Shown here: piece by piece, positions 1 through 47,076 of the stretch
Layout of the letters: every line of letters begins with the position of its first letter
Position numbering within the stretch: position 1 is the stretch's first letter
NCBI GenBank assembly: GCA_965203555.1
Contig: CBDBCY010000004.1
Coordinates: 2,848,001-2,912,000, forward strand
Reading direction: 5' to 3'
Length of the DNA stretch: 64,000 bases
Source of the DNA: Acidimicrobiia bacterium
Lineage (GTDB): Bacteria; Actinomycetota; Acidimicrobiia; Spongiisociales; ZC4RG35
Notes under the pieces: generated by a model
Told to the model about the DNA's origin: nothing
The model's input: the letters and a program-made list of their open reading frames with translations, nothing else
Databases searched by the model: none
Made by a program: the position numbers and the translations under genes

Positions 1-199
1 CCGGGTGGAGGTGGTAGAGCACGTTGTTCATGATCACGTAGGATCGGTTGCGGGGAGTGTCGGTGTATCCCTTCTTGAAAGGGGAACCGGGCCGCAGGAC
101 CGAATCCATGAACTGGCCCGACCAGACCCGACCCGCCAAGTCGGCGGCATGGGTGCGGGCCTTGGTCATCAGACCCTGCTTTCCGTTTCGTCTGCTCAC
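1..199 (-). CDS. cytochrome b subunit of a bc/b6f-type complex, N-terminus (runs off left edge)
   Basis: Not in ORF track. GTG at 199 after AAGGAG translates MSRRNGKQGLMTKA...GYTDTPRNRSYVIMNNVLYHLHP, resembling split cytochrome b N-termini; follows the ferredoxin stop by 10 nt. Confidence 0.7.
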   Translation of the reverse strand, partial: MSRRNGKQGLMTKARTHAADLAGRVWSGQFMDSVLRPGSPFKKGYTDTPRNRSYVIMNNVLYHLHP

Positions 200-209
200 T
201 GCTCGCTCC

Positions 210-659
210 TTACCAGCGCATTCCGTAGGTGTAGCCGTGCTTGAAGTCTCGCTGGCCGGTGTCCACCTCCCAGGGCGCCGTGTTGAGGCCCATCTCCTCG
301 GCCTGGGCGGCCAGGGAGCCCTCGAATTTTCCGAGTGAGATCACCCCGGTGGGACAGCGGTCGATGCACAGGGCGCAGCGGGTGCATTCGTTCTCGTCGA
401 CCACGAAGAAACCATAGTTGGTGGTGTCTTGGCGGGGATCTTCGACATTGACCGCTTCGTCGATGGCTTCCATGGACAGATAGAAAATGCATTTCCACGG
501 GCAGATGTCCACGCACCCTTCGCAGATGATGCATTCGGACTGGTCGATGTGGAGGAACTGCTTGGGACGAAGCTTCCCCTTGTAGAAGTCGTTCTCGACC
601 AGGGCGAGCTGGTAGTCGTCGCGGAAGGGCGGGGTCTCGTCAACAACGCCGCGGGGCAT
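210..659 (-). CDS. 2x[4Fe-4S] dicluster ferredoxin
   Basis: CIICEGCVDICP and CTRCALCIDRCP motifs. Confidence 0.9.
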   Translation of the reverse strand: MPRGVVDETPPFRDDYQLALVENDFYKGKLRPKQFLHIDQSECIICEGCVDICPWKCIFYLSMEAIDEAVNVEDPRQDTTNYGFFVVDENECTRCALCIDRCPTGVISLGKFEGSLAAQAEEMGLNTAPWEVDTGQRDFKHGYTYGMRW

Positions 660-660
660 C

Positions 661-1287
661 TCAGCGGTCTCCCTTCACCATCGGCCGGCCGTAGGGGGAG
701 AGTTTGGTGGCGGCTTTCTTCTTGGGCGGCTTGTAAACCTGCTGGAACAGGTAGGCAACCAGGCCGGCTCCCGCCAGGGCGGTCACGTTGTAGCCTCCCG
801 AAATCGCGTCCTTGATGGCCGCCCAGCTTATCGAGACCTCGTTGCCCAGCATCAGTATGGGAGGAATGTCGAAGGCGATCCGCTGGTTCGACCAGTCGAG
901 GTCGGTCTGGGAGAGGTTGAGCCACTCGGAGGGGACAATGCCGAACACCAGCACGAACTCCATCCAGACCAGGAAGGCGGCGAAGGCAGCCCTGGCCCAG
1001 GTCATCTTTTGGTTGAGCACCCACAGGAAGGCGGCGCCCACCAGCATCATCTGGGAGGCGCCGAAGGCGGCCAGATAGCCGATGCTCTTCCAGAACCAAC
1101 CGCGCGGCACCCAGTTGAAGTAGTCCACCACCAGGGGCGTCGCCACCCCGTCGACGATCTCGGTCTCGGGGAGCTTGGAGTAGTGAACCCACAGCACGGC
1201 CACCGCCATCAGGCCGGTGCCCAGCACCAAAGACGCCCACCCGATGATGATTCGGTGCTTATCGCTTATGGCTGCGAGGCGATGCAT
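661..1287 (-). CDS. conserved multi-pass membrane protein of the respiratory operon
   Basis: About 4 hydrophobic segments; stop abuts ferredoxin start. Confidence 0.75.
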   Translation of the reverse strand: MHRLAAISDKHRIIIGWASLVLGTGLMAVAVLWVHYSKLPETEIVDGVATPLVVDYFNWVPRGWFWKSIGYLAAFGASQMMLVGAAFLWVLNQKMTWARAAFAAFLVWMEFVLVFGIVPSEWLNLSQTDLDWSNQRIAFDIPPILMLGNEVSISWAAIKDAISGGYNVTALAGAGLVAYLFQQVYKPPKKKAATKLSPYGRPMVKGDR

Positions 1288-1435
1288 CTTTAGGAGATGA
1301 CCTTCCCGGATCGGAGCACTCCTATTTTTACACCGCAGGCGCCTTCGAACAAAGTTTTGTGAGTTCCCTGCCGATCGCCGGCGGCACCCGGCAGCACGAC
1401 CGGCGCGCCGAGCGGGGTTTCGTTCTTGCTATCTT

Positions 1436-3016
1436 TTGGAGCGGCGATCATTGGCTAACTTTCCAATCTGGAGCCACGGGGGTCGTGCTCTGAATACAAC
1501 CAAGAATAATCAAGTCGCAGATCCGAAGAAACGAGCCGGACGGTACGCCGCCTGGTCGGACAGGTTGGGTCCGGACACCGCCGCCAAGTGGCACATCGTC
1601 ATGTCCACCGCCTTCCTGGCCCTGGCCGGGATTGTCTGGGTGGTGGCCATGGTGGAAGTTCGGTTCTCCGGCACGCTGACCGGGCCTTTCTCCTACGGTC
1701 GGGTGCGGTCCGTGGCTCTGTTGCTGGCGTTGATCGGCTGGTTGACGCTGTCCCTGGCGGGTGGGGTCTATTACCTGTTGCCCAGGCTCACCGGTACGCC
1801 GATGCGCGGCGAGGCGTTGGCCGTGGCCGGGGGAGCGGCCACTGCGGCGGTGACGGTGGCGGGAGCGGGGGTGGTGCTCCTGGGTTGGGGAGACGGAAGC
1901 GGCCCGTTCGCTCTTCCCTGGTGGGCTTCGCTTCCGCTGCTGGTCACTCTGCTGGCGCCGTCGGTAGTGACTGTCTCCACGGTTCGCCATCGTCAGGAAC
2001 CCAACATTTTTGTGTCTCTGTGGTATGTCCTGGCCGGGGTGGTCTGGCTGCCGCTTCTCTATCTGGCCGGCGCCATGGCGGCGCCCTCCTCGCTGGCCGG
2101 GGCTCTTTCCGAGTCGATAGCTCTGTTCGGGCTCTCCAACTTGTGGGTGGTGGGCGTGGGAGTGGGGCTGGCGTATTACGCCCTGGTGAAGGACACCGGC
2201 AATCCGCTGGCCAGCAGGCAGTTGGCGAGAGTCGGATTCTGGTCCCTGGCTTTCGCGTCGGCCTGGTCGGGCGTGGCGCCGCTGGTTTTCGGTCCCGTTC
2301 CGGGCTGGCTGGAAGCGGTGGCGTTTCTGATGACCCTCGCCCTTCCCGTGTCGGCTCTGGCCAACGCCGCCAATCTTTCTCTCACCGCCGAACAGACCTG
2401 GGCCGATCGGCAGAGCCGTCCGGTGGTCGCCGCTGCCCTGGCGGGGTCGTTCTTCGCCCTGTTGACGGCCTCTCTAACCAGCTTCGGGACGGTTCGCTCC
2501 GCGGCGGCCGTGGTGGGGCTCACCCCCTTCTGGGACGGTGTGCTGTACGGGACCCTGTTCGGCGCCGGCGGCCTGTTCGTTGCGGCCTGGTCCTACCAGG
2601 CGCTTCCGTCGATCAGCGGGCGGAAGTTGGCCGGCATGAACCTTGCCAGGGGGCATCTGCGGTTGACTTTCTGGGGAGTGGGTCTGACTTCGGCGCTGCT
2701 GGTGGGGGCCGGGTTGGTATCGGGCTACAGCTGGGCGGGCGGCGCCTACACAGGGATAAGTCCCACCGGCGCCGGATGGGGGGATCTGGCCGGCATGTCC
2801 TCGTTGCTGGTCGGGTTGTCCATACTGACCGGGCTGGTGGCTCTGGCGGGGCAATTGGCCTTCTGTCTGCTCATCTTCAGGACATTCACCACCGGCAGGC
2901 CCGCCGCACAGGAGATGTTCACTTTGGCGGATGAGGACCTTCCGGCCGATTCCGACAGTTCCTATGATGACGACGGCGGAAGCGATCCGGATAAAAGGGA
3001 GGAAGAGCAGGGATGA
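1436..3016 (+). CDS. cbb3-type oxidase subunit I (CcoN)-like protein lacking heme/CuB His ligands
   Basis: Many TM segments; YGRVR, YYLLPRLTG, YYALVKDTGNPLASRQLARVGFWSL, GPVPGW match the CcoN scaffold; start uncertain. Confidence 0.8.
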   Translation: MERRSLANFPIWSHGGRALNTTKNNQVADPKKRAGRYAAWSDRLGPDTAAKWHIVMSTAFLALAGIVWVVAMVEVRFSGTLTGPFSYGRVRSVALLLALIGWLTLSLAGGVYYLLPRLTGTPMRGEALAVAGGAATAAVTVAGAGVVLLGWGDGSGPFALPWWASLPLLVTLLAPSVVTVSTVRHRQEPNIFVSLWYVLAGVVWLPLLYLAGAMAAPSSLAGALSESIALFGLSNLWVVGVGVGLAYYALVKDTGNPLASRQLARVGFWSLAFASAWSGVAPLVFGPVPGWLEAVAFLMTLALPVSALANAANLSLTAEQTWADRQSRPVVAAALAGSFFALLTASLTSFGTVRSAAAVVGLTPFWDGVLYGTLFGAGGLFVAAWSYQALPSISGRKLAGMNLARGHLRLTFWGVGLTSALLVGAGLVSGYSWAGGAYTGISPTGAGWGDLAGMSSLLVGLSILTGLVALAGQLAFCLLIFRTFTTGRPAAQEMFTLADEDLPADSDSSYDDDGGSDPDKREEEQG

Positions 3017-3819
3017 GCGAACTTCTGGAGGCAGCGGCCCAGGTGGTTGGCGCTCCCCCCGAATTGGTGCAACGTTCCGCGGAGGCGCGGGCCGGGGCCG
3101 ACGGCATTTCGGTGGAGGAAGTTCTGAGAGCTTGGGCGGGGGGAGGACCCACGCCTTCCTCGCCGCCCGGGATAGAAACGCCGCCCCCGGCGCCCGCGCC
3201 GGCCGCCCCCGCTCCGCCGGCCGCCCCCACGGCGCCCCCACCCCCAGCTCCGCCGCCGCCCGTAGCGCCGCCTCCTCCGTCCGTGGCTCCTGCCACCCCT
3301 CCGGCCCAGCCTGTTCGGCCCGCCGCGGCGGCCACCGGCCCGCCCCCGGTGCTGAAGGGCCGGGTTGACCGGCCGTTTCGGTATTTCTTCGGCGCCGCCG
3401 CCCTGTTGGTCCTGTGTCTGGTGGTTACCCTGGTGCTTCCCTCCTTCTCCGGCGCCGGCCGCGGCGCTCTCCATTCCGAGATTCCCTACACTGAAGCGGC
3501 TTTGGTGGGACAGAGTGAGTACTTGGCGGAAGGGTGTGCAGGTTGCCACACCCAGATGGTCCGACCGATAGTGGCCGATGCGCAACTGGCCGCCTCGGCC
3601 GGACTGGGCGGGATAACCCTGTCCGACACCAACCAGGTGATTGGTCGGCAACGTTACGGTCCCGATCTGGCCAACGTGGGAAATCGGATGGATTCCGAAA
3701 CCATCGAGGCGGTGCTTTCAGGGGAGGGAGGTCACATTCTCTACCGGGGAAGCTGGATGGACGACCTCGTGGCTTATCTTGTGGAGTCGAGAGTTTTGAT
3801 GGAGGCAGCCGGTGAGTGA
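3013..3819 (+). CDS. CcoO-like monoheme cytochrome c with N-terminal module and Pro-rich linker
   Basis: CAGCHTQMVRP and GRQRYGPDLANVG are CcoO hallmarks; one TM; ATGA overlap with upstream gene. Confidence 0.85.
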   Translation: MSELLEAAAQVVGAPPELVQRSAEARAGADGISVEEVLRAWAGGGPTPSSPPGIETPPPAPAPAAPAPPAAPTAPPPPAPPPPVAPPPPSVAPATPPAQPVRPAAAATGPPPVLKGRVDRPFRYFFGAAALLVLCLVVTLVLPSFSGAGRGALHSEIPYTEAALVGQSEYLAEGCAGCHTQMVRPIVADAQLAASAGLGGITLSDTNQVIGRQRYGPDLANVGNRMDSETIEAVLSGEGGHILYRGSWMDDLVAYLVESRVLMEAAGE

Positions 3820-4849
3820 CTTTCTTGCGCAGGCGGCCCAAGCCATGGGCGCCCCCGAGGAATTGGTGCAGCGTTCTGCCGAGGCGCGGGCCGGGGCCGA
3901 CGGGGTTCCCGTGGAAGAGGTGCTGCGGGCCTGGGCCGGGGGAGGTCCGTCGCCCGCTGCGACCGCGCCGTCGCCCCCGCCTGCTGCCCCACCCGCCCCC
4001 GATCCGACTCCGTCGCCTGCCGTGGTCGCCACTCCAGAGCCCACCCCCATCCCCGCCGCGCCCCCGATCGCCGCGGCCGCCGAAGTTGCGGCCCCTGCCC
4101 CACCGGTCGTGGCAGCCCCCCCGCCGCCGCCCTCGGAAGTAACCACCAAAGAAGCTGTGTCCTTTCCGGTGGTGGTGTCGGTCCCGACCGCTCGCCTGAA
4201 GGAGCGGACATCTTCGATCCTTCCCCGGTGGCTGGCTGCCCTCTTCCTGGTGGTTCCGGTGATCGGGTTGCTCTATCTGGCGGGGAATTCCGCCCGGGCG
4301 GGTTGTGTGGAAGGAGGAGTGGAGTTGGCTGTCAACCCCATAGATTCCACGGTGGTCAACTGCGACGGAAGCGAGTTCACCGGTCGGGCCGAAGATACCG
4401 CCGGAGCGTTTCTGGTGGTGGGGGAAGTTGTTTTCGAGACCTGCGCCGGTTGCCACGGCGCCAACGGCGAGGGCGGCGTGGGCCCGGCCATGGCCACGGT
4501 GCTGTCGGTTTTCTCCAGTTGCCCCGACCACATCGAGTGGGTCGCCCTGGCCACCGGAGGGTTCCAGGACGCCGGCATCGACACCTACGGCGATCTGGCC
4601 AAACCGGTGGGCGGCGGAGGATTCATGCCCGGGTTCGCCACCAGCAACACCGCCGAGGAGATCGCCGCCGTGGTGGCCTTCGAGAGGATCCGTTTCGGCG
4701 GCGCCGACCCTGACGAGACCCTCGTCGAGTGCGGTTTGATCGATGGAGAGGACGGCGAAGAGACCGCAGAGACCGGATCAGAGACCGAGGAGGCGGAGAC
4801 CGAGGAGGCGGAGACAGACGAGGCCGAGGCCGAGCCTGCCGACCACTGA
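3812..4849 (+). CDS. membrane-anchored cytochrome c with the same N-terminal module and an acidic tail
   Basis: CAGCHG heme motif, FMPGF distal Met, one TM, ETEEA repeats. Confidence 0.85.
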   Translation: MSDFLAQAAQAMGAPEELVQRSAEARAGADGVPVEEVLRAWAGGGPSPAATAPSPPPAAPPAPDPTPSPAVVATPEPTPIPAAPPIAAAAEVAAPAPPVVAAPPPPPSEVTTKEAVSFPVVVSVPTARLKERTSSILPRWLAALFLVVPVIGLLYLAGNSARAGCVEGGVELAVNPIDSTVVNCDGSEFTGRAEDTAGAFLVVGEVVFETCAGCHGANGEGGVGPAMATVLSVFSSCPDHIEWVALATGGFQDAGIDTYGDLAKPVGGGGFMPGFATSNTAEEIAAVVAFERIRFGGADPDETLVECGLIDGEDGEETAETGSETEEAETEEAETDEAEAEPADH

Positions 4850-5253: not shown

Positions 5254-6096
5254 TCATCGTGGGCGCGGCGGTGGCGCAATTGTGGGGATTGATGTTCTCT
5301 CCATGACCACCGACATCCGCTCGGTGAGATTCAGTTCGTCGCAGGCCCTTCCTTCTCTCATGGCTATGGCCACCAGACCGGCCGAGTCGACATGGATCAG
5401 CAACTCCCCTTTACGCACCTGCGCATAGGTGGCGCCTGTCTTGATCCGATGAGTCGAGGCGCCCAATCTCACCACCAGTTCGGTGCGATCCTCCAAGCCG
5501 GCGGCTTGCAGGTCATCGGGGGAGATATTGGTCTGCACATTGCCGAAGGTGTCCACCCACCAGGCTTCGCCACTGACTCGCCCTGCGGAGACCTCCGGCA
5601 GGGGCAGAAGCAGCGGCGTCACCTCATGGGCGCCGATCGCGGGTCCCAAATCCTGCAGAGATGCTTCACCGGCGGCCAGCGCCGCGGCGGCCGGTGCGAA
5701 CACGTCCCGTCCCCAGAAGGTGGCGGAGGCGGCGGGCAGACGAAACTCGGGATTGTCGATGGACACTATCCGGTGGGCGCCTCCCATCATGGCAACCGCC
5801 GGCGAGAGCAGGCCGTTGTCAGGTCCGACGAAGGTCATCTCGCCGGTCTCCACCGCCAAGGCACGCCGGTCGGTTCCCACGCCGGGGTCCACCACCGCCA
5901 ATGTGACCCCCGGCGGAAGGTACTGGACAGCGCGTAACAGCGAAAGGGCGCCTGCCCGGATGTCGCCGCGGGCGATTCTGTGGTTTATGTCGATGACCCG
6001 AGACTGCGGGGCAATCCGGGCTATCACTCCGTGCACCACCCCCACGAACTCGTCGTCGGTTCCAAAGTCGGAAAGGAAGCTGATCGGAAGACTCAT
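5254..6096 (-). CDS. SAM-dependent chlorinase/fluorinase family (DUF62, SAM hydroxide adenosyltransferase)
   Basis: FLSDFGTDD, VVDPGVGTDR, GPDNGLL, SATFWGRDVFAP, VDTFGNVQTN. Confidence 0.9.
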   Translation of the reverse strand: MSLPISFLSDFGTDDEFVGVVHGVIARIAPQSRVIDINHRIARGDIRAGALSLLRAVQYLPPGVTLAVVDPGVGTDRRALAVETGEMTFVGPDNGLLSPAVAMMGGAHRIVSIDNPEFRLPAASATFWGRDVFAPAAAALAAGEASLQDLGPAIGAHEVTPLLLPLPEVSAGRVSGEAWWVDTFGNVQTNISPDDLQAAGLEDRTELVVRLGASTHRIKTGATYAQVRKGELLIHVDSAGLVAIAMREGRACDELNLTERMSVVMERTSIPTIAPPPRPR

Positions 6097-6193
6097 GATG
6101 TCCAGCGGTTCGACAGCATTAAGGCCAAGGCCTTTAAGGGTAGAGCCCCTGCTGATCGAGGGCGTCTTCTGTGTCATTTCATCACGAAAATCG

Positions 6194-7998: not shown

Positions 7999-8903
7999 CG
8001 CTGACAACTGACGGTGTAGAGGGGTCGGTGCACGGCGCCCAGCCGGCGCTTGTACGTCTCGGCGCCCTTGAGGAAATCGAACCGGGTCAGGCCCTCGGCG
8101 ATCACCTTCTCGATCAGGGAAGTCAACAGGACCACTCCCGGGGACAGTGAAGAATAGGCCGGATCGAAAGAGGAGTTGTACAGGTAGTAGCAGTCTGTGT
8201 CGGAGTATCCGAACACGCAGGCGGAAGCCTGCCCGTCCCCAGTCTCCAGGAGATCGATCCTCCATCCGGGAAGATCTGCCAACTGCCGGAACAGCGGCGT
8301 GGTTTCCTCGTCCATGAACTGTCCTTTTGCTCCGGTAGCCAGTTTATGAAGTCTGACGAACTCCTCGAACTCCCATCCCGGATCCGGTTGGCTGTGCAGG
8401 CGGAGGTGGCCGATCCCACGGTGGTAGCGCCTGGTCTTGCGGCGGATCTCGTGGCGTTCCTTCTTGCCCACCATCTGCAGGTACTCATCGAAGGTAGGGG
8501 GCAGATGGAGCACCGCCGCCACCTCGGTCTGCTCACGGACAGGGTTGGCCCCGGCCAGGTTCAGGCCGTCCGACACCGCGTCGGCGGCCCGGCCGGGCAG
8601 AGAGTCCCACAGTAGTGTGGCGCCCGTCCCCTGGCTGCTCCACCACTCGGCGACCAACTCAGGGACGCTTCCTCCTCGAGGACTGTGGTAGTCGGTCAGG
8701 GAAGCGGGACCCGCCATCCGCACCGTTTGATCATCCCTTTGGAGGGCGAGCAATCCGTCGTCGGATTCCACCAGTTCCAACCGGTTCCGGCTGCGGTGGC
8801 CGGTGACCGCCTGCAAGAAGTCCCGACCGGGAAAGGGACCGAGGTGGGTGGACACCGTGGGGAGACGGAAAGCTGCGGTGTCCCAGTCCTGGTGAACAAG
8901 CAT
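7995..8903 (-). CDS. GNAT-family acetyltransferase (CelD/BcsL-like)
   Basis: LPPTFDEYL..KKERHEIRRK, YLYNSSFDP..LSPG, FDFLKGAETYKRRLGA. Confidence 0.85.
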   Translation of the reverse strand: MLVHQDWDTAAFRLPTVSTHLGPFPGRDFLQAVTGHRSRNRLELVESDDGLLALQRDDQTVRMAGPASLTDYHSPRGGSVPELVAEWWSSQGTGATLLWDSLPGRAADAVSDGLNLAGANPVREQTEVAAVLHLPPTFDEYLQMVGKKERHEIRRKTRRYHRGIGHLRLHSQPDPGWEFEEFVRLHKLATGAKGQFMDEETTPLFRQLADLPGWRIDLLETGDGQASACVFGYSDTDCYYLYNSSFDPAYSSLSPGVVLLTSLIEKVIAEGLTRFDFLKGAETYKRRLGAVHRPLYTVSCQR

Positions 8904-8907
8904 CGGG

Positions 8908-10122
8908 TTAACAGGCCGCTCTCATGGTCGGATAGGGGTTGTAGGCGGGCGAACCCCTCCCGCTGGGATGAAGTTGCAGATGGAGGTGAGGAGGTCCCCC
9001 TTCGGCGTTTCCGGAGTCTCCGTTGTAGGCCACCAGCTGTCCGGAAGTCACCCGGTCGCCCTGATTGACCGCCCAACCGCTGAGATGGGCGTAGTAATAG
9101 CCAACCCCGGTGTCCGAATGCAGCCAGATGCCCCTGCCTCCCAAACCGCTGTTCACCACGGTGACGGTTCCGCTTGCCACCGCATAGAGAGGGGCGCCGT
9201 GGGGCCCGTACATGTCCACTCCCCGGTGGGTCCTGCCTCCCGATCGGGGATCTCCCCACGAGTCCACGAACGCCGACCCCGGGAAGGGGCACACCAGGCC
9301 GGGTATGGGTCCCACGCCCTCGCTCTGCCGCGACGCCCGGGCTATGGCCTGCAGGCGGGCCTGTTCGCGTCGACGGGCCTCGGCCGCTTGGGCGGCCGCT
9401 CTTCTTCGGGCCTCCTCCGCTCTCTTTCGGGCCTCCTCGGCGCGGCGCCGGGCTTCTTGGATCTCCCACTGCCTGACCAGTGCCTGGCACTGCTCGTCAA
9501 GTTCCTCCCAGGCCCCGTATTGGTCACGGGCAGTCAAGGCCAGGCTCTCCACCCAGTCTTTGCGTTGCTGTTCCAACTCCGCCAATTGGGTTTCCACCCC
9601 CGCGATTTCCTCCTGGTGTTGGTCGAGGTCCCGCTGGGAACTGAGGTAGTTGTTTATTTCGGCCAGTTGCGTCTCGGTTTGCGTGGCCAGGTAGTGGGTG
9701 CCCACTATCACATCTGCGGGGGTGTCTCCCAGAAAGGGAGCGAGGCTCAAGGCTCCCTGCTGCATGTACAACTGGATAGCGGTCTGCTCCAAACCGGCGC
9801 GAAGTTGCTCGACCTCTTCGGCCTTGAGGCTCGCCAGGGAAACCGCCACGTCACGTTGAGCCTGGACGATCTCGATCTCCTCCAGCACCAGGTACCACTC
9901 GGCGTTGGCTTCATGGAAAGCGTCCACCGCGTCCTCGTACACCACCAGATGGACGCTGGAGACTGCACAGGCCTTGTCAACTTCTGCCTTCTCTATCTGG
10001 GGCTGTGGGGGGTCTTCGTCCTCTTGCGCCATAGACAGGGTCGCTCCACCGGCGGCGAGGAGCATTCCTGTCAGTATCGCGACGAGGAGCAGGACGGCCG
10101 GGGCCCGCACCGCTTTTGCCAT
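8908..10122 (-). CDS. secreted coiled-coil M23 peptidoglycan endopeptidase
   Basis: Signal peptide, coiled coil, HRGVD, YYAHL and HLH zinc motifs. Confidence 0.9.
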   Translation of the reverse strand: MAKAVRAPAVLLLVAILTGMLLAAGGATLSMAQEDEDPPQPQIEKAEVDKACAVSSVHLVVYEDAVDAFHEANAEWYLVLEEIEIVQAQRDVAVSLASLKAEEVEQLRAGLEQTAIQLYMQQGALSLAPFLGDTPADVIVGTHYLATQTETQLAEINNYLSSQRDLDQHQEEIAGVETQLAELEQQRKDWVESLALTARDQYGAWEELDEQCQALVRQWEIQEARRRAEEARKRAEEARRRAAAQAAEARRREQARLQAIARASRQSEGVGPIPGLVCPFPGSAFVDSWGDPRSGGRTHRGVDMYGPHGAPLYAVASGTVTVVNSGLGGRGIWLHSDTGVGYYYAHLSGWAVNQGDRVTSGQLVAYNGDSGNAEGGPPHLHLQLHPSGRGSPAYNPYPTMRAAC

Positions 10123-10168
10123 ATACCAGATAGGTTAAAACGATTGGCAGGTCAATGATTCGAGGCTC

Positions 10169-11161
10169 TCAGGCGAGGAGGGTGAGCAGGGCGAAAAAGA
10201 CCATCCCGGCACACAGGGGACCGTCCAGGTTGGCCAGTATCCCCGGCAGGGGAGTGGACCACAGCCGTCCGGAGCGCAGCAGGGCGCCGAAACCTTCCCC
10301 GGCCAGATAAGCTGCCGCCAGACCGAACCCGATCAGCAGAAAACCGGTGATGGAGAAACCCCACAACATGGCGCCGAGCAACGACAGAACCACCACTGCG
10401 ATCACCACCGTGTTCTGTCGGTTCAGGAATCGGTTGGTCTTCACCCGCCGGGCAACCTCCGCCAGGATGATGGTGCCCACCGCCACCGCCAGGAAGAACC
10501 CCACGGTCCTGGAACCTGGTTCGTAGACGGCCCGGGCCAGCATCAGCGATGCCAGGGCCCCGCAGGCCACCGTGCCGATCCCCGCCGATATTCCGATGGA
10601 TACCAAGTGGCGCCGGCGGGGCACGAACACCGCTGCTCCCAGGGAGAAAACAACGCCCATGGAGAGGGCGAGGAGCGCCGCGGGCGGTCCCAACAGATGG
10701 ATCAGGCCCACGGCCACCACCTCGGCGGCCAGCAGTGCTCCCACCGCCATCCGGTACCCGCGTTCGGCGGCCGCCGCCGCTATGTCGATCGTCCACAATC
10801 CGACCATGGCTGCCAGGATGGGCTTCCACAGGCTCAGATCGCCCGACAGGTTGCCCAGGACCAGCGCCGCCACAACTATCAGGGTTCCCACCCCGCCCGA
10901 TCCCAGTTCCTTTCCCAACGCCACCGATCCTCCCGACACAGGGGGCAGCAGCGCTATCTCGTCATCGGCGTTGACCGGCGCAAGGGCGTCCACTTCTTCA
11001 CCGTTGCGCCACACCTTGGCGGTTGCCAATCCGGCCGCAAACTGGGCGCCGAAGCGGGAGGAAGCTGTTTCCAGCACCTCTCCCACCGTCTCGCCTTCGA
11101 TCATCACCTCGGAAGCGTGCGCCGCCTCTCTCAGACCGGCGAACAGTCGTACTCTAGGCAT
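10169..11161 (-). CDS. MoaD/ThiS ubiquitin-like domain fused to a multi-pass membrane domain
   Basis: RLFAGLREAA...IALLPPVSGG (aa 1-78), then ~250 hydrophobic aa ending PGILANLDGPL. Confidence 0.8.
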   Translation of the reverse strand: MPRVRLFAGLREAAHASEVMIEGETVGEVLETASSRFGAQFAAGLATAKVWRNGEEVDALAPVNADDEIALLPPVSGGSVALGKELGSGGVGTLIVVAALVLGNLSGDLSLWKPILAAMVGLWTIDIAAAAAERGYRMAVGALLAAEVVAVGLIHLLGPPAALLALSMGVVFSLGAAVFVPRRRHLVSIGISAGIGTVACGALASLMLARAVYEPGSRTVGFFLAVAVGTIILAEVARRVKTNRFLNRQNTVVIAVVVLSLLGAMLWGFSITGFLLIGFGLAAAYLAGEGFGALLRSGRLWSTPLPGILANLDGPLCAGMVFFALLTLLA

Positions 11162-45776: not shown

Positions 45777-46952
45777 TTAGTGCAGGACCGCCTGCAGGCC
45801 GGGCCTGAATTTCTCCGGTTCGAGCAAAAAGGCGTCGTGTCCCTTGTCGGAGTGGACGGTATGCCACAGCACCGGCACCCCCACTGCGTTGAGTTGCCTG
45901 ACCATATATTCCTGCTCGTCGGGATAGAAACATACGTCCGAGTCGATGGTGAACACCATCCACTGCTGGTTGCGGCAGCGGCTCAACACCTCCGCGATGT
46001 TCTGCCCGCCGACTTCTCGGAGCAGATCGAACTTCTGCCAGACCCGGACCACCCGCAGATAGGTGTTGGCGTCGAATCGTTCTATGAACTTTTGTCCCTG
46101 GTGCAGCATGTAGGACTCCATGGGATGCTGTACCCGGAATCCGGCCAGGTATTCGCGGTGAATGATCTCTTTGCGGATGCGCTCCCGAAAGGCGGACAGG
46201 GAGACAAAGGTCTTGTGGCCGATCATCCGGGCCAGCGCCAGTCCCAGGTCGGGCGCAGGGCCGTCGTAGAAGTCGCCGCCCCGGAAATGGGGGTCGGCGA
46301 TGATGGCGAACATCTGCTCGAAATTGTGGATCACCTGCAGGGTGGTCACCCCCAGACCCGCGGCGATGGGAATTACCACCTTCACCCGGTCCGGATAGCG
46401 TGTTCCCATCACCAACGCCATCAGGCCGCCCACCGAGCCTCCGGTGCAGGCGTGGATCCGCTCGATGCCGAGCTTGTCCAACAGTTGCACCTGGGAGTCG
46501 ACGATGTCGGTGATGGTGAGGTTGGGGAAAGCCGATCCGTACGGCCGGCCGGTGGCGGGGTTGATCGAAGACGGGCCGGTGGAACCGTAGCACCCGCCCA
46601 GATAGTTGACGCACATGACGGCATACCGGTCGGTGTCGAGAGCCAGTCCGGGTCCGATGAATCCCTCCCACCAGCCCACCTGCATCTCTTCGGTCCACTT
46701 CCCGCCCACCCCCGGCACCGACTCGGTGAATCCATGGGCATGCTGGCTTCCGGTGAGAGCGTGGAACACCAGGATGACATTGTCCCGGGTTTCGTTGAGT
46801 TCTCCGTACATCTCGTAGGCGAGGGTCACTTGGGGGATCTTCTTGCCGCTCAGAGTGGTGAAGGGACCGTCCAGTTGCACGAACCGGGTCTCGGTGCGGG
46901 GCAGGTTCGCATGTGCGTCTTCGGCGGGTGGGCGGGGGGCGCTGATTGTCAC
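45777..46952 (-). CDS. metX: homoserine O-acetyltransferase (GTG 46952 after AAAGGAG, or ATG 46970)
   Basis: HALTGS, GGCYGSTGP, GGSVGG, RFDANTY, KGHDAFL. Confidence 0.92.
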   Translation of the reverse strand: MTISAPRPPAEDAHANLPRTETRFVQLDGPFTTLSGKKIPQVTLAYEMYGELNETRDNVILVFHALTGSQHAHGFTESVPGVGGKWTEEMQVGWWEGFIGPGLALDTDRYAVMCVNYLGGCYGSTGPSSINPATGRPYGSAFPNLTITDIVDSQVQLLDKLGIERIHACTGGSVGGLMALVMGTRYPDRVKVVIPIAAGLGVTTLQVIHNFEQMFAIIADPHFRGGDFYDGPAPDLGLALARMIGHKTFVSLSAFRERIRKEIIHREYLAGFRVQHPMESYMLHQGQKFIERFDANTYLRVVRVWQKFDLLREVGGQNIAEVLSRCRNQQWMVFTIDSDVCFYPDEQEYMVRQLNAVGVPVLWHTVHSDKGHDAFLLEPEKFRPGLQAVLH

Positions 46953-46964
46953 CGACTCTCCTTT

Positions 46965-47054
46965 ACTCATCGGTCAGGCGTTGGCACCGTGCCGGGGATC
47001 CGACCGGTTGCCGCGGTTTCGCGGGGCCTGATCCCTCCACCGCTCTGGATGAGC
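46965..47054 (-). ncRNA. SAM-I (S-box) riboswitch, short form lacking P4
   Basis: GCTCATCCAGAGCGGTGGAGGGA..GGCCC..GAAACCGCGGCAACC..GGTGCCAA..GATGAGT upstream of metX. Confidence 0.9.
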
Positions 47055-47076
47055 GTCTGGTGACGCTACCGGACCC

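Follow-up and report, generated by a model that had tools for sequence, protein, structure and literature searches.

This report concerns a three-gene operon at positions 1436 to 4849 of a stretch of 64,000 nucleotides from an Acidimicrobiia bacterium (GenBank assembly GCA_965203555.1, contig CBDBCY010000004.1, positions 2,848,001 to 2,912,000 of the forward strand); the whole stretch is referred to as the window. An earlier note on this DNA had described a cbb3-like operon whose catalytic subunit had lost all six histidine ligands and the cross-linked tyrosine, and had taken the protein for a selected pseudo-oxidase rather than the product of a decaying gene. Both parts of this description are borne out below. 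The subunit, here named pCcoN, is most likely a catalytically dead descendant of the cbb3 catalytic subunit CcoN, and its ligand-less state is old and under selection. Numbered from the first nucleotide of the window, the operon contains the following features:

1436..3016, plus strand: pCcoN, 526 residues, a CcoN-like protein with 12 transmembrane (TM) helices and without haem or copper ligands; conserved core from about residue 45.
3013..3819, plus strand: pCcoO, 268 residues; N-terminal cytoplasmic module joined by a Pro/Ala-rich linker to a single TM helix, and a haem-c domain like that of CcoO.
3013..3150, plus strand: N-terminal module, copy 1 (..PPELVQRSAEARAGADGISVEEVLRAWAGGGP), at the start of pCcoO.
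3535-3549, plus strand: haem-c motif CAGCH of pCcoO.
3812..4849, plus strand: cyt c3, 345 residues; N-terminal module and linker as in pCcoO, then a single TM helix and a class-I cytochrome c domain with one haem.
3812..3949, plus strand: N-terminal module, copy 2, at the start of cyt c3.
4442-4456, plus strand: haem-c motif CAGCH of cyt c3, which also contains a GFMPGF motif.

The open reading frame of pCcoN is full length and uninterrupted, as had been stated, and the correction concerns its start codon. The TTG at 1436 is doubtful because relatives from the same genus carry insertions or deletions that are not multiples of three within codons 6-14, and because the alignment of distant relatives to pCcoN begins only at about residue 45; the real start probably lies downstream, between positions 1451 and 1601. 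The claimed translational coupling to two CxxCH cytochromes is seen in the gene overlaps, where the stop codon of pCcoN and the start codon of pCcoO share the sequence ATGA (3013-3016) and pCcoO and cyt c3 share GTGAGTGA (3812-3819), with a single CAGCH motif in each of the two cytochromes. Purine-rich stretches precede both gene junctions.

For classification of pCcoN the two family profiles proposed in the earlier note were used. The protein scores 76.4 bits against the Pfam profile COX1 (PF00115), above the cut-off of 34.8, and 87.7 bits against the ccoN equivalog TIGR00780, far below the cut-off of 583.15. The ligand columns were then read from a HMMER alignment to solved CcoN chains and from a MAFFT alignment with ligand-complete CcoN sequences, and in both alignments all six histidines and the tyrosine are gone. 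The columns of the two haem b ligands are occupied by A94 in TM2 and Y371 in TM10, that of the haem b3 ligand in TM10 by V369, and those of the CuB ligands by F231 in TM6 (the WYGHN motif) and by A281-P282 at the histidine pair of TM7, whereas the column of the cross-linked tyrosine in TM7 contains S275. The four motif pairings that had been drawn by eye were reproduced; for the pair WWYGHN/SIALFG the MAFFT alignment agrees and HMMER places a gap, and no histidine is found either way. There are four histidines in the whole of pCcoN, none of them at a column conserved in the family.

The fold is nevertheless that of CcoN. An AlphaFold2 model built with 52 family members has a mean predicted local distance difference test score (pLDDT) of 88.9 and contains 12 long helices, and a Foldseek search of this model against solved structures gives CcoN chains as the best matches, with E values from 5e-19 to 8e-17. 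The TM-score normalised to the cbb3 oxidase 3MK7 is 0.87, and the best matches reach target-normalised values of 0.85-0.88; they include cbb3 oxidases that are part of bc1-cbb3 supercomplexes (6XKW, 8SMR, 9G83). Cytochrome ba3 and NorB follow after the CcoN chains, at about 1e-10. Judged from these comparisons, pCcoN most likely binds neither haem b nor haem b3 nor CuB and most likely reduces neither O2 nor NO; that it contains no cofactor at all is something we infer.

To place the loss of ligands in time we turned to the relatives of pCcoN. A HMMER scan of 1.84 billion representative sequences with pCcoN gave 706 matches at E<=0.001, and histidines at the six ligand columns were counted over the 110 sequences of at least 420 residues among the best 150 of these matches. 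Seventy-three of them have no histidine in any of the columns, 14 have all six, and 23 are intermediate, with one, two, three, four and five histidines in 7, 10, 1, 2 and 3 sequences, respectively. The cross-link column holds a tyrosine in 13 of the 14 ligand-complete representatives and in none of the 73 ligand-less ones. In a FastTree phylogeny of the 110 sequences pCcoN falls on a side of 68 rows, 65 of them with zero histidines and 3 with one stray histidine, which is separated from the remainder by a branch with a support of 99; in an IQ-TREE phylogeny of 87 rows the 42 rows sampled from the pCcoN side again stand together, with an SH-aLRT value of 98. Both trees are unrooted. A finer sampling of 29 loci, which covered the genus, its family and order and further orders of the class, gave the same picture, since 28 of them have no histidine in any readable ligand column (the TM10 columns are not covered in 2 of the 29), and the sole exception, L026, has one histidine, the first of the TM7 pair.

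The gene is clearly kept by selection. Within the genus the ratio of nonsynonymous to synonymous substitution rates (dN/dS) of pCcoN is 0.158, with a range of 0.05-0.26 (12 sequences, 66 pairs), which is well under 1 and may be compared with 0.179 for pCcoO, 0.152 for the neighbouring gene unk208 and 0.037 for the neighbouring ferredoxin-like subunit. The homolog and dN/dS comparison that had been suggested thus shows close homologs without the histidine ligands and a constrained protein. Collectively, these data show that the ligand loss is old and selected and that it is common to one well-supported clade spanning several classes of the phylum.

The scan also revealed a second clade of CcoN-like proteins with none, one or two of the six histidines. 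It comprises 15 representatives (P0096, P0119, P0142, P0133, P0150, P0105, P0117, P0131, P0146, P0120, P0128, P0143, P0138, P0137 and P0149) and is sister to the ligand-complete P0064 group. Since this clade lies outside the pCcoN clade, loss of the CcoN ligands seems to have occurred more than once. In addition, four early-branching relatives of pCcoN from another class of the phylum (L058-L061) have kept the second histidine of TM10, and one of them (L058) also the histidine of TM2. The two residues retained in L058 are the ligands of the low-spin haem b, and the CuB and haem b3 ligands are absent from all four; to judge by these residues, the four proteins may represent an intermediate state of ligand loss.

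The distribution of pCcoN among genomes follows taxonomic lines. It matches 39 of 41 near relatives (a tally that includes two genomes flagged as unpublished, G027 and G038), and the 13 close relatives found by a locus search are all uncultured Acidimicrobiia. Among 201 evenly sampled genomes of the class 87 contain a match, the same 87 whether the single sequence or the family profile is used, namely 42 of 48 in the order of the window, 42 of 47 in a family whose genomes measure about 1 Mb and one in each of two further families; many other families of the class have none, for instance 0 of 21, 0 of 11 and 0 of 10. In a sample of the phylum 32 of 401 genomes match, other classes included; this tally contains the unpublished genome G500, which belongs to family f70, where 10 of 10 genomes match. 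When ten loci from other classes were fetched, seven proved degenerate, four of these being the relatives with retained histidines described above, and three were ordinary ligand-complete CcoNs that group with the canonical sequences.

The second gene accompanies the first. FixO (CcoO) matches are present in 73 of the 201 class genomes, only in families that have pCcoN and beside pCcoN. In 15 genomes the pCcoN and FixO matches fall in open frames of identical length, and in one locus (L031) a single protein of 665 residues contains both the COX1 and the FixO domain of Pfam. The two genes are therefore fused in part of the family, and it is clear that they are gained and lost together.

pCcoO itself scores 46.6 bits against the Pfam FixO profile (cut-off 29.6), in a match limited to profile positions 27-115 of 219. 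We aligned 29 CcoO-like sequences with true CcoO from three ligand-complete loci. CxxCH is present in 29 of the 29, the axial methionine motif (S/T-M-P-S-Y/F) is kept in most of the lineages, and the canonical C-terminal extension of CcoO is absent from all of the CcoO-like sequences. The family of the window has a histidine (GGH, SHPS) in the axial methionine column, H241 in pCcoO, and the haem of pCcoO would be His/His-ligated. The product of the third gene, cyt c3, scores 11.9 bits against the CcoP profile TIGR00782, below the cut-off of 180, and with its single CxxCH it is not a dihaem protein.

In the source genome, which is 95% complete, the only other match to PF00115 is an A-type CtaD, located 635 kb away in a cluster of ctaC (fused to a cytochrome c), ctaD, ctaE and ctaG. 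No cytochrome bd was found in this genome, nor FixS (ccoS) or FixH (ccoH), whereas ccoG and ccoI were not searched for, and pCcoO is its one FixO match. The caa3 oxidase is thus the sole oxygen reductase of the genome. The genome search for a ligand-complete ccoN that the earlier note had called for therefore yielded CtaD and nothing else, and a search of 401 genomes of the class with TIGR00780 at E<=1e-50 gave 0 matches, that is, no ligand-complete ccoN.

The sole cytochrome b gene of the genome lies immediately upstream of the pCcoN operon on the opposite strand, as part of a divergent operon with the order unk208, 2[4Fe-4S] ferredoxin-like subunit, b6-like cytochrome b (262 residues), PetD-like subunit (306 residues), Rieske protein and a dihaem cytochrome c of 568 residues. 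Its first genes are located at the left end of the window:

1288..1435, no strand: divergent intergenic region between unk208 and pCcoN, with two conserved blocks.
661..1287, minus strand: unk208, a conserved membrane protein of 208 residues and of no known family, with which the divergent Rieske/cytochrome b operon starts.
210..659, minus strand: ferredoxin-like 2[4Fe-4S] subunit with two CxxCxxCxxxCP motifs, in the same operon.
1..199, minus strand: 5' end of the cytochrome b6-like gene (PetB-like, 262 residues); the operon runs on upstream of the window.

The b complex is unusual in its split b6/PetD-type cytochrome b, its cytoplasmic-looking ferredoxin-like subunit, unk208 and a dihaem cytochrome c with a long insert (L003, 10864-16287). 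The ferredoxin-like subunit is present in 178 of the 201 class genomes. In the intergenic region one block, CTATTTTTACACCG at about 1322-1335, and a second, CTTGCTATCTTTTGGAGCGGC, which extends from about 1425 to about 1445 and so reaches into the nominal pCcoN frame, are invariant or nearly so in 12 members of the genus, and the sequence separating them varies freely. Both blocks are candidate promoter or operator elements common to the two operons.

The divergent arrangement is conserved far beyond the genus. Of 21 class loci outside the genus, drawn from other genera, families and orders, 19 have the three genes divergent to the b operon, among them loci of three genomes of about 1 Mb. The two remaining loci (L031 and L032) have the cytochrome c biogenesis genes ResA-ResB-CcsA between the pCcoN operon and the b operon. 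Of the 10 loci from other classes, 5 have the homologue at a distance of 5-7 kb from this ferredoxin/cytochrome b/Rieske operon. In L032 the genes pCcoN, ctaC, ctaD, ctaE, ctaF, ctaG, pCcoO and cyt c3 follow each other on one strand, and the pCcoN of this locus (8090-10219, minus strand) carries a cupredoxin-like domain at its C-terminus in place of the CcoO fusion. In the window a gene of the S-adenosylmethionine (SAM) hydroxide adenosyltransferase family (5254-6177, minus strand) lies a short way downstream of the cluster, and 16 of the 21 compared class loci, including those of the genomes of about 1 Mb, have this gene nearby. A SAM riboswitch (RF00162, 71.4 bits) is located at 46940-47055 on the minus strand, and there are no tRNA genes in the 64-kb window.

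A second tie between the two operons is found in the N-termini of their products. The first 46 residues of pCcoO and cyt c3 are nearly identical and are followed in both by about 80 Pro/Ala-rich residues and then by the membrane helix. The PetD-like subunit of the b complex opens with the same motif (IPEELLRRSAEAKAKALG.PVEQVLAEM), which is highly conserved across the class. A hidden Markov model (HMM) of the module, which is roughly 40 residues long, made from these three copies recovers them with E values from 5e-18 to 5e-29 and adds a fourth protein about 3.5 kb from ctaG, near the caa3 genes; the next match after the four copies has an E value of 0.05. The copies outside the window are:

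L003, 14257-14391, minus strand: N-terminal module, copy 3, of the PetD-like subunit, found with the module HMM.
L028, 5352-6566, plus strand: multi-pass membrane protein of 404 residues and of no known family, with N-terminal module copy 4, found with the module HMM at E 1.4e-12.

In L031 and L032 a shorter form of the module is present on both PetD and cyt c3. A word-based search, covering proteins of 189-604 residues, gave 320 proteins with the module at E<=0.001, and the Pfam domains among the 120 listed are FixO or cytochrome c. Pfam and NCBIfam contain no family for the module, unk208 or the protein of 404 residues, and an atlas look-up of the latter two returned only clusters of hypothetical proteins from the same phylum. 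The N-termini of CcoO and PetD face the cytoplasm, and the module-bearing N-termini are therefore expected to be cytoplasmic. A predicted complex of the ferredoxin-like subunit with the N-terminal module of the PetD-like subunit (residues 1-38) received a score of 0.00, which speaks neither for nor against binding.

We favour the explanation, to which we give a probability of about one half, that pCcoN is an oxidase without activity which has been retained in the membrane as a scaffold for two c-type cytochromes acting in the chain from the Rieske/cytochrome b complex to the caa3 oxidase. It is suggested by the combination of four observations: the absence of oxidase chemistry, the selection on the gene, the joint inheritance and occasional fusion with a haem-c domain, and the positional and modular tie to the sole complex III. 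pCcoN would hold the CcoO-like haem-c subunit and would work with a second membrane-anchored monohaem cytochrome c, the three proteins making up a cytochrome-c module that faces the periplasm and is accessory to the aerobic chain leading from the sole Rieske/cytochrome b complex with its ferredoxin-like subunit to the sole oxygen reductase, caa3. We infer the physical association with the b complex from the conserved synteny and the shared module, and electrons would be relayed towards caa3. The likely origin would be an ancestral pairing of a b complex with a cbb3 oxidase, as in the solved bc1-cbb3 supercomplexes, in which the docking and cytochrome-carrying role stayed after the oxidase chemistry had been lost. 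Among the options put forward in the earlier note, the idea that pCcoN anchors cytochromes connected with the adjacent bc-type complex is the one best supported by the synteny and the shared N-terminal module, and its scaffold option fits the conservation pattern of pCcoN, in which nearly all of the conserved positions are Gly, Pro, Trp, Arg and Tyr residues that are conserved in ligand-complete CcoN as well.

Several observations weigh against this explanation. The ferredoxin-type b complex is present in 178 of the 201 class genomes and pCcoN in 87, and whole families without pCcoN (e.g. those with 0 of 21 and 0 of 11) have both the b complex and an A-type oxidase; pCcoN must therefore be accessory, it cannot be an obligatory link of the chain, and it is dispensable in many lineages. 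It also evolves much faster than the subunits of the b complex, with an identity to the protein of the window of 26-49% across the same loci where cytochrome b has 72-88%. The link of the pCcoN module to caa3 comes from one genome (L032), the only one of seven genomes with both genes on one contig, among the matches listed, in which the two are adjacent. A histidine in place of the axial methionine would probably lower the potential of the pCcoO haem, which fits a simple relay to the oxidase less well. Finally, transcription is weakly hinted at: an RNA library (X7, from the same sample as the DNA set X2) contains three short contigs at least 99% identical to 2207-2341, 2735-2928 and 3005-3233, which cover parts of pCcoN and pCcoO and could stem from DNA, of which such libraries are not always free; in a second RNA run (X11) no contig matches the operon.

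A more far-reaching possibility, which we regard as tentative and rather doubtful, is that pCcoN is the hub of a new respiratory supercomplex composed of the ferredoxin-bearing Rieske/b6-type complex, the pseudo-cbb3 cytochrome-c module and caa3. The cytoplasmic N-terminal module on its long Pro/Ala linkers, shared by the PetD-like subunit, pCcoO, cyt c3 and the fourth membrane protein, would then act as a tether and supply part of the glue. If this were true, a dead oxidase would have been turned into an architectural subunit, as has happened with some pseudoenzymes elsewhere.

Two further explanations are both unlikely, and to a similar degree. According to the first of these, pCcoN has been neofunctionalised, its haem pockets or old proton path having been put to a new use: it might conduct ions or protons, act as a transporter or bind a quinone or lipid, and the cytochromes c would be only loosely related to this role. 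An ion channel was among the options of the earlier note, and the fold kept at high model confidence together with purifying selection over the whole length would suit such a role; the conserved positions of the ligand-less clade are, on the other hand, almost all the structural Gly, Pro, Trp and Arg residues of true CcoN, with no new conserved polar or charged TM residue among them, and the gain, loss and fusion of pCcoN go strictly together with a haem-c domain. According to the second, pCcoN would be an assembly or stabilising factor, a chaperone or platform for the maturation of c-type cytochromes, the b complex or caa3, which stands outside the working chain. In L031 and L032 the ResA-ResB-CcsA genes are located directly upstream on the same strand, and ctaG and the other cta genes lie inside the cluster of L032, but 19 of the 21 loci have no adjoining biogenesis genes, and both partners of pCcoN are membrane-anchored haem-c proteins, which is the make-up of a working module. 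A precedent for a stabilising role, as far as the account in PMC10715153 goes, is a ligand-less COX1-like protein of Acetobacter that is kept beside ctaB.

It is very improbable that pCcoN has remained a redox enzyme, with haem or metal bound by a different set of ligands. One or two haem b histidines do survive in some early-branching relatives from another class (TM2 and the second of TM10 in L058), but pCcoN has no more than four histidines and a TIGR00780 score of 87.7 against a cut-off of 583, and the check for alternative ligands showed that in the ligand-less clade no column is conserved to 70% or more as His, Met, Cys or Lys. Recent decay, for which nothing speaks beyond the ligand loss itself, is rejected as next to impossible, given an open full-length frame here and in relatives down to 25% identity, a dN/dS of 0.16 and presence in streamlined genomes of about 1 Mb. 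Equally negligible is the idea that pCcoN regulates or structurally supports another CcoN that is active, an option of the earlier note that fails, within the 95% completeness of the genome, on the search results for ccoN given above.

Returning to the scaffold for two cytochromes c that we prefer, pCcoN would be a natural and long-lived haem-copper oxidase scaffold without cofactors that has kept its haem-c partners, and hence a handle on what subunit N contributes apart from catalysis and on how, in these bacteria, the oxidase receives its electrons from complex III. The family spans streamlined as well as larger genomes of the class, and the respiratory chains of many uncultured organisms are therefore concerned. 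There is also a consequence for annotation. NCBI and JGI records name the homologues "cbb3-type cytochrome c oxidase subunit I", and "cbb3" in an annotation is usually taken as a sign of respiration with high affinity at low oxygen. For this class the conclusion would be wrong; no ligand-complete ccoN was found in the 401 sampled genomes. One genome survey lists cbb3 oxidases for its genomes (PMC8357290).

Compared with the cbb3 oxidase CcoNOP, a haem-copper oxidase of the C family (e.g. 3MK7), the present system has the same 12-TM fold of subunit N, the same gene order of N, O and a third cytochrome c, overlapping genes, and in pCcoO a CcoO-like TM helix, CxxCH and an R.GPDL motif. It differs in that pCcoN lacks the ligands and the tyrosine, that pCcoO lacks the C-terminal extension and has, in the family of the window, a histidine in the methionine column, that the third subunit is monohaem and not dihaem like CcoP, that pCcoO and cyt c3 carry the extra N-terminal cytoplasmic module and the Pro/Ala linker, and that ccoS and ccoH were not found in the genome.

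The bc1-cbb3 supercomplexes (6XKW, 8SMR, 9G83) consist of a Rieske/cytochrome b complex, a C-family oxidase docked on it and, between the two, c cytochromes anchored in the membrane. The oxidase is active there, whereas here synteny and the shared module are what point to an association, and the b complex here has a cytochrome b split in the b6/PetD manner, a 2[4Fe-4S] subunit and a dihaem cytochrome c. The bcc-aa3 supercomplex of actinobacteria (e.g. 7QHM) has an unsplit cytochrome b, and its dihaem QcrC carries electrons from complex III to the A-type oxidase with no soluble carrier. It belongs to the same phylum, and a dihaem cytochrome c is encoded in the present b operon too, but to our knowledge no CcoN-like or CcoO-like subunit of it has been described.

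A survey of new haem-copper families describes, in the text of the article, families that lack the tyrosine and have the metal ligands (PMC11214002); no account of a ligand-less CcoN family was found in the literature, on which the supplements of that survey could bear. The nearest parallel is the 'deranged' COX1-like protein of Acetobacter, which by its description has lost all metal-binding residues and is retained, with a structural role proposed (PMC10715153). As far as that description allows a comparison, the Acetobacter protein is of the A family, lies beside ctaB and is found in Alphaproteobacteria, whereas pCcoN is of the C family, has intact haem-c partners, occurs in several classes of Actinomycetota and is tied to a b complex. 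Thus, the fold and the operon are the known ones of cbb3, and what is new is the cofactor-free state with retained haem-c partners, the N-terminal module and the fixed tie to the b complex.

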